Origin: a virus
Lineage: Duplodnaviria; Heunggongvirae; Uroviricota; Caudoviricetes
DNA length: 27,567 nucleotides
Strand: one strand, 5' to 3'
IMG/VR virus record: IMGVR_UViG_2695420708_000004
Shown here one piece after another: positions 18,901 to 21,900 of the stretch. Every line of letters starts with the position of its first letter. Positions within the stretch are counted from its first letter, which is position 1. The position numbers were made by a program.

Positions 18901-21900
18901 CGCTATCTTGGCACGGCGCTGTACTGGATAGCCGCCAGTATCAATATCAAACCGGGCCATGATTATTACTTTTATATCCGCAGTGTGAACACCGTTGGCA
19001 AATCGGCATTCGTGGAGGCTGTTGGTCAGCCGAGTGATGATGCATCCGGTTATCTGGATTTTTTCAAAGGCGAGATAGGGAAAACCCATCTGGCTCAGGA
19101 GCTGTGGACGCAGATTGATAACGGTCAGCTTGCGCCTGACCTGGCTGAAATCAGGACGTCCATTACGGATGTCAGCAATGAAATCACGCAGACTGTCAAT
19201 AAGAAACTGAAAGACCAGAGTGCGGCAATCCAGCAGATACAGAAGGTTCAGGTTGATACAAATAATAATCTGAACAGCATGTGGGCTGTGAAGCTGCAAC
19301 AGATGAAGGACGGACGCCTTTATATTGCGGGTATCGGTGCCGGTATTGAGAATACGCCAGCAGGAATGCAGAGTCAGGTGCTGCTGGCGGCAGACAGGAT
19401 TGCGATGATTAATCCTGCGAATGGCAACACAAAGCCGATGTTTGTTGGTCAGGGCGATCAGATATTCATGAACGACGTGTTCCTGAAACGCCTGACGGCT
19501 CCCACCATTACCAGCGGCGGTAATCCTCCGGCATTTTCCCTGACACCGGACGGAAAACTGACCGCTAAAAATGCAGATATCAGTGGCAGTGTGAATGCGA
19601 ACGCCGGGACGCTCAACAATGTCACAATTAATGAGAACTGTCAGATTAAGGGGAAACTGTCAGCCAACCAGATTGAAGGCGATATAGTCAAAACAGTGGG
19701 TAAGGCTTTTCCGCGGGACTCCCGGGCACCGGAGCGGTGGCCATCAGGGACCATTACCGTCAGGATTTATGACGATCAGCCTTTTGACAGGCAAATTGTT
19801 ATTCCGGCGGTGGCATTCAGCGGCGCTAAACATGAGCGGGAGAATAACGATATTTATTCGTCATGCCGCCTGATAGTACGGAAAAACGGTGCTGAAATTT
19901 ATAACCGTACCGCGCTGGATAATACGCTGATTTACAGTGGTGTTATTGATATGCCAGCTGGTCGCGGCCACATGACGCTGGAGTTTTCGGTGTCAGCATG
20001 GCTGGTGAATAACTGGTATCCCACAGCAAGTATCAGCGATTTGCTGGTTGTGGTGATGAAGAAAGCCACCGCAGGCATCAGTATCAGCTGAATTTTATAA
20101 CCCATATACGGGCGCCAGAAATGGCGCCTTTTTTATTGCAGAAAAGCGAGAGGTAATTATGCGTAAAGTTTGTGCAGCCATTTTGTCCGCAGCCATCTGT
20201 CTGTCCGTATCCGGTGCGCCTGCATGGGCGTCTGAACATCAGTCCACACTGAGCGCGGGGTATCTTCATGCCAAGGATACGCAGGCCATTGTCCGTTACG
20301 GTCGTAACGTCACGAAGATGGATGCCTTTGGCTGTACCAGCCGGGGGCAGGCACACCGCGCCGGGCTGTGGCTGATTAAAACGGAACTGCTGGAGACGCA
20401 GACCGTGGATTTCAGCGTGGGTGCTGAAGGGCTTCGTCATGTACCGGGCGATGTCATTGAAATCTGCGATGATGACTATGCCGGTATCCGCACCGGCGGG
20501 CGCGTGCTGGCGGTGAACAGCCAGACCCGGACGCTGACGCTCGACCGTGAAATCACGCTGCCATCCTCCGGCACCACGCTGATAAGCCTGGTTGACGGGC
20601 AGGGGAATCCGGTCAGCGTGGAGGTCCAGTCCGTCACCGACGGCGTGAAGGTAAAAGTGAGCCGTGTTCCTGACGGTGTTGCTGAATACAGCGTGTGGGG
20701 GCTGAAGCTGCCGACGCTGCACCAGCGATTGTTCCGCTGCGTGAGTATCCGTGAGAACGACGACGGCACGTATGCCATCACCGCCGTGCAGCATGTGCCG
20801 GAAAAAGAAGCCATCGTGGATAACGGGGCGCACTTTGACGGCGACCAGAGCGGCACGGTGAATGGTGTCACGCCGCCAGCGGTGCAGCACCTGACTGCCG
20901 AAGTCACCGCAGACAGCGGGGAATATCAGGTGCTGGCGCGCTGGGACACGCCGAAGGTGGTGAAGGGCGTGAGCTTCCTGCTCCGTCTGACCGTAACAGC
21001 GGATGACGGCAGTGAGCGGCTGGTCAGCACGGCCCGGACGACGGAAACCACTTACCGCTTCACACAACTGGCGCTGGGGAACTACAGGCTGACAGTCCGG
21101 GCAGTAAATGCGTGGGGGCAGCAGGGCGATCCGGCGTCGGTATCGTTCCGGATTGCCGCACCGGCAGCGCTGTCGCGGATTGAGCTGACGCCGGGCTATT
21201 TTCAGATAACCGCCACGCCGCATCTTGCGGTTTATGATCCGACGGTACAGTTTGAGTTCTGGTTCTCGGAAAAGCGGATTGCGGATATCAGGCAGGTTGA
21301 AACCACAGCACGCTATCTTGGCACGGCGCTGTACTGGATAGCCGCCAGTATCAATATCAAACCGGGCCATGATTATTACTTTTATATCCGCAGTGTGAAC
21401 ACCGTTGGCAAATCGGCATTCGTGGAGGCTGTTGGTCAGCCGAGTGATGATGCATCCGGTTATCTGGATTTTTTCAAAGGCGAGATAGGGAAAACCCATC
21501 TGGCTCAGGAGCTGTGGACGCAGATTGATAACGGTCAGCTTGCGCCTGACCTGGCTGAAATCAGGACGTCCATTACGGATGTCAGCAATGAAATCACGCA
21601 GACCGTCAATAAGAAACTGGAAGACCAGAGTGCGGCAATTCAGCAGATACAGAAGGTTCAGGTTGATACAAATAATAACCTGAACAGCATGTGGGCTGTG
21701 AAGCTGCAGCAGATGCAGGACGGACGCCTTTATATCGCGGGTATTGGTGCCGGTATTGAGAACACCCCTGACGGCATGCAGAGTCAGGTGCTGCTGGCGG
21801 CGGACAGGATTGCGATGGTTAATCCTGCGAATGGCAACACAAAACCGATGTTTGTTGGTCAGGGCGATCAGATATTCATGAACGACGTGTTCCTGAAACG

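Follow-up and report, generated by a model that had tools for sequence, protein, structure and literature searches.

Architecture of the J–lom region

The window, by which we mean the whole stretch of DNA analysed, spans 27,567 nucleotides of a Caudoviricetes virus record (IMG/VR IMGVR_UViG_2695420708_000004), and its relevant features are collected in Table 1. The upstream tail module is whole, and its alignment stays collinear and free of indels for 10,191 bp. The full-length J protein contains the Pfam domains FNIII-A_GpJ, a complete Phage-tail_3, Ig_J, Ig_J_second, Phage_Tail_Tip and Ig_GpJ_C. At the exact site of the normal lom there is a fusion, an open reading frame on the + strand (20159-22519) of 786 open codons in which Lom codons 1-38 run in frame into J, starting at Asp419 and continuing to the J stop. 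The lom Shine-Dalgarno sequence, start codon and signal peptide are all retained. A further copy of lom, a side tail fibre gene and tfa follow.

Table 1. Features of the J–lom region, numbered from the first letter of the window.
Feature	Position	Strand	Basis
Full-length tail-tip/host-specificity gene J, 1159 aa, with receptor-binding domain (RBD) A	16612..20091	+	ORF; Pfam
Repeat copy 1: J codon 419 to stop, intergenic spacer, lom codons 1-38	17864..20272	+	Local alignment; repeat families D1-D3
RBD-A, J residues 1029-1159	19696-20088	+	95-97% identity to isolated-phage J ends
Terminator-like hairpin and T-run directly after J	20110..20139	+	8-bp stem, 6 G-C pairs
lom ribosome-binding site GAGG, 5 nt ahead of ATG	20150-20153	+	Sequence
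Signal-peptide coding part (codons 1-24, predicted cleavage before S25)	20159..20230	+	Hydrophobicity profile; -3/-1 rule; OmpX/Ail mature N-termini
lom-derived segment (codons 1-38: signal peptide and first β-strand)	20159..20272	+	Pfam Ail_Lom 1-39/199; ordinary J-lom match stops at 20272
Novel joint, single base A	20273..20273	+	Neither lom parent (C or T) nor J parent (G)
J-derived segment (D419 to stop, J frame)	20274..22519	+	Lambda J alignment; Pfam
Perfect-identity tract, 1330 bp, 100% identical to 17864-19193	20274..21603	+	Copy alignment; homologous-recombination substrate
Repeat copy 2	20274..22703	+	Local alignment
RBD-B, chimera residues 650-785	22106..22513	+	Pfam Ig_GpJ_C
Downstream lom copy, 160 aa against 199, C-terminal strands missing	22590..23072	+	Pfam Ail_Lom 1-159/199
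Side tail fibre gene (stf-like), 1029 aa	23165..26254	+	PHROG tail fibre families; collinear with stfR of NCTC9967
Tail fibre assembly gene (tfa), broken	26254..26770	+	65-bp frameshifting deletion at 26375/26376

The initial annotation had described this frame as a 38-codon Lom N-terminus followed by J from about residue 419 to the end, and the open reading frame, Pfam and DNA alignments all bear this out. Residues 1-38 match profile positions 1-39 of the 199 in Pfam PF06316 (Ail/Lom; E 3.4e-16) and are near-identical to the start of the lom at 22590. From residue 40 the chimera is J from D419 on, while residue 39 is a lysine (AAG) whose counterpart in J is E418 (GAG). Against lambda J (PDB 8iyk) only residues 417-1131 align. 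The Lom is of the Ail/Lom type found in E. coli prophages, to which lambda's own Lom is only distantly similar (PDB 9wso chain C, E 1e-25). A chance resemblance can be discarded: over the lom part and the DNA ahead of it, identity to ordinary J-lom loci is 99.3%, and the J part matches an ordinary full-length J at 96.6%.

The chimera is neither a complete J nor a Lom. It lacks FNIII-A_GpJ, and of its Phage-tail_3 domain (PF13550) only profile positions 88-162 of 164 remain, leaving it without the N-terminal tail-tip hub domains. Each of Ig_J, Ig_J_second, Phage_Tail_Tip and Ig_GpJ_C exceeds its curated Pfam cut-off; the two FNIII/Ig domains, the fibre shaft and the C-terminal receptor-binding Ig domain of J are present. 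J replaces everything past strand 1 of Lom, so the eight-stranded barrel is absent. The chimera begins beyond J residue 418 and has only half of PF13550, the hub domain, and we agree with the earlier proposal that the J moiety would not be built into tails.

Two of the neighbouring genes are damaged. An 83-bp frameshifting deletion at 23060/23061, a site flanked in relatives by a CTGGCG repeat, has inactivated the downstream lom, and together with the broken tfa this makes the accessory region look as if it is decaying.

A tandem duplication with a homology-free joint

At the DNA level, copy 2 repeats copy 1 as a 2.41-kb tandem duplication. Identity between the copies is 100% over the first 1330 bp, then 87-97%, falls to ~45-62% in the RBD, and returns to 94% over the spacer and the 5' end of lom. 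At 21604 there is a mosaic boundary, past which identity to a natural gene J with RBD-B (J-B) rises from ~95% to 99.4%; on this sequence evidence, the 3' part of the second copy is shown to have a different ancestry from the first. When both parental sequences were compared, no microhomology was found at the joint. The breakpoints respect no domain boundary, falling inside Phage-tail_3 (J 330-498) and after only 39 of the 199 Ail_Lom positions.

Both sides of the array continue into ordinary sequence. The flank comprising J-A and lom is 99.3% identical to common single-copy prophage loci, and that comprising J-B, lom and stf is 98.2% identical to such loci. No near-identical prophage without the duplication was found, the best match being 97.1% identical, and the order of events is therefore one that we infer.

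Two different receptor-binding domains

The two J ends carry distinct RBDs, with 58 identical residues between them (135 and 141 aa compared). Among isolated phages, JLK-2012, vB_EcoS-640R1, PhiR55_1 and others have J ends 95-97% identical to RBD-A, while those of Evi, 2B8, PhiR26_1, cdtI and several Stx2 phages are 97-99% identical to RBD-B. Each is thus the sole RBD of isolated, viable phages. In-silico collapse across the repeat gave an open 3498-bp gene for an intact 1165-aa J with RBD-B, 97.7% identical to the gpJ of NCTC9967.

The RBD of J targets the extracellular loops of its porin receptor, and gpJ713, a J truncated at its N-terminus, can fold and bind LamB in vitro (PMC11101478). By analogy, the J moiety of the chimera could be binding-competent. 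The J end of phage WGPS6 is 97% identical to RBD-B, and phi330, which uses OmpC, has been described as closest to this phage. This is the only lead on the receptor of RBD-B, and an indirect one.

Rarity of the joint

Exact-string searches of GTDB genome contigs, IMG/VR and JGI metagenomes did not return the joint elsewhere, and the exact chimeric protein was absent from a collection of 15 billion proteins. A homology search likewise found no protein spanning the joint; the best hits, short J or Lom fragments, cover at most 78% of the first 116 residues. A lom 5' end beside J 419-471 was found in two of 5,426 complete E. coli genomes (S42 and FY26), each with a different joint, and in none of 50,697 phage records.

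In E. coli S42, lom codon ~124 is joined out of frame to J ~307, and the resulting array, J - lom' - 'J - lom, carries one RBD twice. FY26 has two joints, in which the Lom residues MRKVCA are followed by J471 and by J382; these six Lom codons do not make a signal peptide. Its RBDs are of types A, A and a third type. The prophage remnant that holds its array has neither head nor tail genes, and the array is found at the record ends, among other duplicated blocks. The S42 and FY26 pieces are marked as pseudogenes by PGAP. Two further joints are P0085, in which lom 42 meets the final 64 aa of J and hence half an RBD only, and P0048, a deletion-type J'-'lom joint. At the DNA level, three of the four lom'-'J joints examined are in frame, which is not significant (chance p ~0.11). 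We had considered a site-specific mechanism, since both FY26 joints share one lom nucleotide, and dropped it because the present window and S42 use other lom positions.

Among the joints found, comparison of their sequences shows a "signal peptide plus J" design conserved nowhere, and no independent genome in the collections searched has the same architecture. The joint itself was found nowhere else in them; the kind of event, rearrangement of a lambdoid J, is already known. A literature search returned no report of tandem duplication of lambdoid tail-fibre genes.

Export signal and expression context

A signal peptide with an AWA-S cleavage site had been proposed for the start of the chimera, and the segment has the sequence properties of a Sec-type (signal peptidase I) leader. 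Judged by 9-residue Kyte-Doolittle means (core up to 2.6) and the -3/-1 rule, the n-region MRK is followed by a hydrophobic core at about residues 4-17 and by A-W-A at -3 to -1 before S25. In alignments, the solved mature chains of OmpX (1qj8 and others) and Ail (3qra) start at Lom residues 26-29. Cleavage as predicted would leave a mature chimera of 762 residues, an estimated ~81 kDa. No lipobox ([LVI][ASTVI][GAS]C) was found in the chimera, where Cys5 and Cys14 have no small residue at -1, and the protein carries neither this motif nor a β-barrel for anchoring or display.

Expression of the fusion in lysogens is uncertain. The terminator-like hairpin that separates J from the fusion recurs after the second J copy (22542-22559), and no sigma-70-like promoter was seen on the + strand between 19500 and 23300, a weak negative from a consensus scan only. 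The literature on lom is inconsistent: in one paper lambda lom went undetected in lysogens, and the regulation of its promoter is described there as little understood (PMC2147009), while lom has also been reported among the few lambda genes expressed in lysogens.

Origin and likely fate of the chimera

The chimera is probably an accidental in-frame rearrangement without a likely selected function, and its realistic consequence would be a spare RBD cassette. The sequences show that illegitimate, homology-free recombination joined lom codon 38 to J codon 418/419, giving the order J(A) - lom'::'J(B) - lom. The chimera would be transcribed with the late operon after induction, through Q-antiterminated read-through, and perhaps also at a low level under whatever conditions normal lom expression occurs. 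The protein would enter the Sec pathway and finish in the periplasm, carrying a shortened hub fragment that is probably unfolded; alternatively, it might clog or miss the translocon. Such a product could neither enter tail tips nor reach the outer face of the receptor, and so would most likely have no selected function of its own. RecA- or Red-mediated recombination over the 1330-bp repeat would delete 2410 bp and restore a single J with RBD-B; the 'J segment would thus act as a spare cassette and the array would be inherently unstable, which fits its rarity. A relict partial J in a host genome has been seen to recombine with lambda J, with a rise in phage fitness (10.1101/2020.11.02.365361).

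The junction is in frame and the 747-codon J part is fully open, as a functional fusion would require. The in-frame state, however, has a prior of 1 in 3, and the perfect repeat shows that there has been too little time for decay. Mixed trimers with full-length J, giving a dominant-negative effect, are possible in principle, since residues 419-866 are identical.

The array might instead be maintained by selection as host-range bet-hedging, with the fusion protein irrelevant: most virions would carry J with RBD-A, while recombination between the direct repeats would continually yield a minority with RBD-B. Its two copies are no simple repeat of each other but hold RBD alleles that differ and that each function on their own, and collapse would give an intact J of a natural type. 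The repeat offers 1330 bp of perfect homology, the boundary at 21604 shows that homologous exchange has acted on the array, FY26 also has a multi-cassette array with differing RBDs, and relict J sequences are documented as recombination donors. We nevertheless regard such selection as unlikely. The array is a singleton, with comparable arrays in two of 5,426 genomes and none in sequenced phages; the switch would be one-way and would destroy the array; S42 duplicates one RBD; and the FY26 array sits in a remnant that lacks head and tail genes. The adjoining lom and tfa are decaying, and no long inverted repeats of the programmed-switch kind lie beside the cassette (in 16000-27567, only 20-25 nt at 76-85% complementarity), nor was a recombinase, invertase or reverse-transcriptase gene noticed next to it.

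That the array is an assembly artefact, with reads of two co-resident lambdoid prophages of near-identical J mis-assembled, seems quite improbable to us. In its favour, a 311-bp lom-J junction query has a median of four matching places per E. coli genome, and a 1330-bp perfect repeat is of a type that assemblers handle poorly; the joint occurs in no other data set, and the FY26 array lies at record ends amid duplicated blocks. Mis-joins, however, arise in shared sequence, whereas this joint links the unrelated lom codon 38 and J codon 418 with an orphan base, and a homology-free joint of that kind requires a real or chimeric molecule. Both flanks are also collinear into ordinary context, and analogous joints exist in independent finished genomes.

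The initial annotation had gone further and read the fusion as a possible exported decoy that masks or binds the cognate receptor, for superinfection exclusion or lysogenic conversion. Such a decoy might also inactivate the receptor or spare progeny from binding to debris, as T5 Llp does. The predicted signal peptide is intact, native lom translation signals and upstream context are retained, RBD-B is there in full, as are the FNIII, shaft and fibre domains required for trimerisation, truncated gpJ binds receptor in vitro, and there is the report of lom being on in lysogens. Yet the design shows zero conservation across the collections searched, and each of the remaining lom/J joints is missing its signal peptide, its J moiety or the greater part of the RBD. 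Topology is a further obstacle, because Sec delivery ends in the periplasm while the RBD binds extracellular loops, and the chimera has no lipobox or β-barrel to display it; half a hub domain is also likely to misfold. Masking would affect the receptor of RBD-B, whereas the prophage's own expressed J uses RBD-A, so any exclusion would target other phages. The joint is that of an illegitimate tandem duplication which ignored domain boundaries, the neighbouring lom and tfa are broken, and expression faces an upstream terminator-like hairpin, no promoter-like site on the + strand and inconsistent reports of lysogenic lom. We therefore consider a decoy function very improbable. It is hardly credible that a fusion made from the lom signals, whether in the lysogen or late after induction, would be exported and that its trimeric RBD-B would capture porin in periplasmic transit or in the debris of lysed cells, so that the lysogen or its debris becomes refractory to RBD-B phages. 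This would, if true, be the first receptor-masking exclusion factor from a phage's own RBD; a literature search for exclusion factors derived from RBDs gave nothing relevant by title or abstract.

The anatomy given in the initial annotation thus stands, while its exported decoy is disfavoured by the singleton status, the homology-free joint, the topology and the decaying neighbours. The evidence favours the caveat that it raised itself, namely a possibly non-functional fusion.

As a protein, the fusion probably matters little, being a one-off by-product of frequent shuffling among lambdoid prophages. The locus illustrates how illegitimate recombination can by chance set a complete RBD cassette behind the start signals of another gene, and how one prophage can store two host-range alleles with 1.3 kb of perfect homology for swapping them. 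Provided that the prophage can be induced, a predictable minority of the phages in its lysates should have altered receptor specificity, which bears on natural host-range shifts. It also calls for caution in annotation: an open frame of 786 codons can be a rearrangement scar even when it encodes a signal peptide and four good Pfam matches.

Comparison with known systems

The closest parallels are other lambdoid J rearrangements, namely the S42 array and ECB_00512 of REL606, a relict J gene that has recombined with lambda J. There, as here, a partial J without its N-terminus accompanies an intact J, either beside it or farther downstream; PGAP labels partial copies of this sort pseudogenes, and they can donate to a functional J by homologous recombination. 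The position of the joint is unique to the present window, where the joint also falls in frame behind a complete signal peptide. Its two copies end in different RBD alleles; those of S42 end alike.

The outcome proposed for a decoy, inactivation of the outer-membrane receptor of the phage by a phage-encoded protein in the envelope, is shared with T5 Llp and with Cor of phi80, N15 and HK022. Llp and Cor are small dedicated proteins, and Llp is a lipoprotein not derived from an RBD. The chimera, in contrast, has 786 aa, a truncated hub domain and no lipobox, and is not conserved. LamB-LacZ fusions similarly place an outer-membrane export signal on a large protein that folds in the cytoplasm; they are laboratory constructs, and at high expression they jam the Sec machinery. 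Finally, the invertible segments of Mu Gin and P1 Cin, like diversity-generating retroelements, also keep alternative receptor-binding ends in one genome. Unlike the Gin and Cin segments, the cassettes described here are direct repeats, and switching between them would be a one-way deletion by general recombination.

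The chimera is the joint of a tandem duplication

The window is taken up by the late region of a lambda-like prophage, where the head and tail genes lie: those for both terminase subunits (small and large), portal, major head protein, tape measure and tail assembly, together with J, lom, stf (for the side tail fibre) and tfa. Annotated prophages in complete E. coli genomes run collinear with the tail module, which aligned to them at 97% identity in one piece of 10,191 bp, exactly the query length, and therefore contains no net indels. Upstream of the gene for the terminase small subunit, a 141-aa ORF has a full-length match to PHROG 413 ("head protein", E 1e-89), although a head gene would not usually lie at this place or in this direction.

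The initial annotation described the chimera correctly, including its coordinates. The first 38 codons are the Lom N-terminus (Pfam PF06316, Ail/Lom, profile positions 1-39 of 199, E 3.4e-16), and J residues from about 419 to the end follow: codon 39 is AAG (K) in place of the GAG (E418) of J, and codon 40 onward is J from D419. The typical signal peptide also noted there has signal peptidase I anatomy: residues 4-17 form a hydrophobic core after MRK, and A-W-A precedes S25. The mature chains of the solved homologues OmpX and Ail begin at positions aligned to Lom residues 26-29. This Lom is of the common E. coli-prophage Ail/Lom type. Identity with lambda's own Lom was rejected, as the similarity is only distant (PDB 9wso chain C, E 1e-25); that chain is lambda Lom in a solved structure (2026 PDB copy).

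Features of the J-lom array and its surroundings
Feature	Position	Strand	Description
Head-protein-like ORF	207-632	-	141 aa
J	16612-20091		1159 aa, complete by Pfam
Copy 1	17864-20272		first copy of the repeat unit
Chimera ORF	20159-22519	+	786 aa, directly 3' of J, at the usual lom position
Joint	20273		base between the copies
Copy 2	20274-22703		second copy of the repeat unit
End of perfect identity	19194 / 21604		copy 1 / copy 2
Inverted repeat arms	20254-20273, 22848-22867		first arm ends exactly at the joint, second lies inside second lom
Second lom	22590-23072		next gene 3' of the chimera ORF
Deletion in second lom	23060/23061		83 bp
stf	23165-26254		3' of second lom
tfa	26254-26770		3' of stf
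Deletion in tfa	26375/26376		65 bp

The fusion ORF is the novel joint of a tandem duplication, in which two direct copies of one unit, running from J codon 419 to the stop through a 67-bp spacer to lom codon 38, lie one after the other. The joint has no microhomology and its single intervening base matches neither parent, as is characteristic of illegitimate recombination. Protein architecture is disregarded at both breaks: J is cut within Phage-tail_3, a hub domain (J 330-498) of which the chimera retains profile positions 88-162 of 164, and lom is broken after its first β-strand. An imperfect inverted repeat of 20 nt with 85% complementarity, one arm of which is at the joint, is probably due to chance.

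Relative to NCTC9967, an E. coli strain with a natural single-copy J, the second lom has lost its last ~40 residues to a frameshifting deletion, and a CTGGCG direct repeat flanks the corresponding stretch in that strain. The prophage is therefore without any intact lom. A further frameshifting deletion, relative to tfaQ of NCTC9967, splits tfa into two frames. The accessory right end is gathering lesions; the core tail genes are still whole.

The two copies carry different receptor-binding ends

The copies are 100% identical over their first 1330 bp, 87-97% identical over the next ~470 bp, only ~45-62% identical at the receptor-binding end, and 94% identical again in the spacer and lom 5' end. 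Between the receptor-binding ends of the upstream full-length J (J-A, with RBD-A) and of copy 2 (J-B, with RBD-B), 58 residues are identical (135 and 141 aa compared). Exactly where the perfect identity ends, the match of copy 2 to the J of NCTC9967, which has the same RBD type, rises from ~95% to 99.4%, indicating a sharp mosaic boundary that would be the endpoint of a homologous exchange or gene conversion. Either a plain duplication could have later gained a foreign 3' end from the right by homologous recombination, or two different phages could have been joined and the 5' part then homogenised. In a search for a close ancestor the best match was only 97.1% identical.

As the most probable consequence of the array, general recombination across the directly oriented 1330-bp repeat, by RecA or by Red in lytic growth, would delete 2410 bp. 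The product of this collapse in silico is an open 3498-bp gene encoding a 1165-aa J, 97.7% identical to gpJ of NCTC9967, with the second lom following the restored J. Since the product is an open J of natural type, the partial J segment is a spare receptor-binding cassette with nothing missing, and the array should be inherently unstable, in keeping with its rarity. It is doubtful that selection maintains the array: it is a singleton in a decaying neighbourhood, the cassette switch runs one way, and a scan of 16000-27567 for inverted repeats found nothing of the machinery of a programmed switch.

A unique joint between ordinary flanks

Both flanks of the joint are ordinary. The J-A end with lom is 99.3% identical to many single-copy prophage loci, the match ending exactly at the joint, and the J-B end with lom and stf is 98.2% identical to other prophage loci. 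Each receptor-binding domain is also the sole one of isolated, plaque-forming phages (RBD-A in JLK-2012, vB_EcoS-640R1 and PhiR55_1; RBD-B in Evi, 2B8, PhiR26_1, and cdtI and Stx2 phages). The joint itself had no match in 50,697 phage records or 5,426 complete E. coli genomes, and was not found in GTDB representative genomes, IMG/VR or JGI metagenomes. The exact chimera protein had no match in a 15-billion-sequence collection, and a homology search with its first 116 residues did not recover the joint (best coverage 78%).

Only two of the 5,426 complete genomes have the 5' end of a lom near J 419-471, both with other joints. Strain S42 (NZ_CP010236.1; extracted locus 2473-9646) has the order J, lom (1 to ~124), J (~307 to end), lom, stf; the joint is out of frame, the repeat is 3005 bp at 98.0% identity, and both J copies carry the identical RBD type. 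In strain FY26 (NZ_CP101741.1), three J copies that lack their N-terminus lie in tandem, and two of them start MRKVCA|J471 and MRKVCA|J382 (extracted locus 2450-2470 and 4587-4607). Both are in frame and share the same lom nucleotide with different J positions, retaining six Lom codons and hence no signal peptide. The FY26 array adjoins duplicate copies of a tRNA-Q-RusA-DUF968-hokD block at the ends of the record (a further extracted locus, 1-9000), with no head or tail genes, and so appears to lie in a prophage remnant; it could be a heavily rearranged remnant or an assembly problem. The S42 and FY26 pieces are pseudogenes in the PGAP annotation.

The search with the chimera N-terminus also returned two singleton chimeric proteins from public E. 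coli assemblies: P0085, with Lom 1-42 fused in frame to the final 64 residues of RBD-B, and P0048, in which a deletion-type joint links part of the J hub to the Lom C-terminus. As all these joints differ, lom/J rearrangements are sporadic but recurrent, their breakpoints are arbitrary, and they share no design of a "signal peptide plus J". Of the four joints examined at the DNA level, three keep the reading frame, which is not significant (chance probability ~0.11 by our own calculation).

It is quite unlikely that the joint in the window is a mis-assembly. An error of this kind should fall where the sequences are shared, whereas here unrelated sequences meet at an orphan base, and analogous joints occur in independent finished genomes.

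Predicted expression and export

The lom Shine-Dalgarno sequence (GAGG, 5 nt from the ATG) and all of the native upstream context are kept in the chimera, which should therefore be translated whenever lom would be. A terminator-like hairpin lies just upstream, and a consensus scan of 19500-23300 found no promoter-like site on the chimera strand. In lambda, late transcription after induction is antiterminated by Q, and in this prophage it should likewise read through to the chimera. For lysogens, lom is listed among the expressed lambda genes (PMC7067206), while in an array study it was undetected and the regulation of its promoter was said to be little known (PMC2147009).

With its intact predicted signal peptide, the product would be routed to Sec. 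The 762-residue J fragment, with half a hub domain first, may be translocated or degraded, or may jam the translocon, as classical LamB-LacZ hybrids do. Although the anatomy in the initial annotation was right, its functional proposal, an exported receptor-binding decoy, is unsupported and very improbable. The J moiety could be binding-competent, because gpJ713, a truncated form of gpJ, can fold and bind receptor in vitro, and binding by the fusion in lysis debris is a possibility. However, the chimera is not conserved, and the signal peptide delivers to the periplasm only, whereas by cryo-EM the J RBD binds extracellular loops of LamB (PMC11101478, also for gpJ713). The fusion lacks any lipobox or barrel that would display it at the surface, and it carries RBD-B, while the J expressed by the prophage itself carries RBD-A.

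Origin of the array

The chimera is best explained as the joint of a tandem duplication that came out in frame by accident, and what matters about it is the alternative receptor-binding cassette stored there. Partial J relics have been shown experimentally to act as donors to a working J, with a gain in fitness, for lambda and ECB_00512 (10.1101/2020.11.02.365361). The chimera is a fresh instance of an already known kind of prophage rearrangement.
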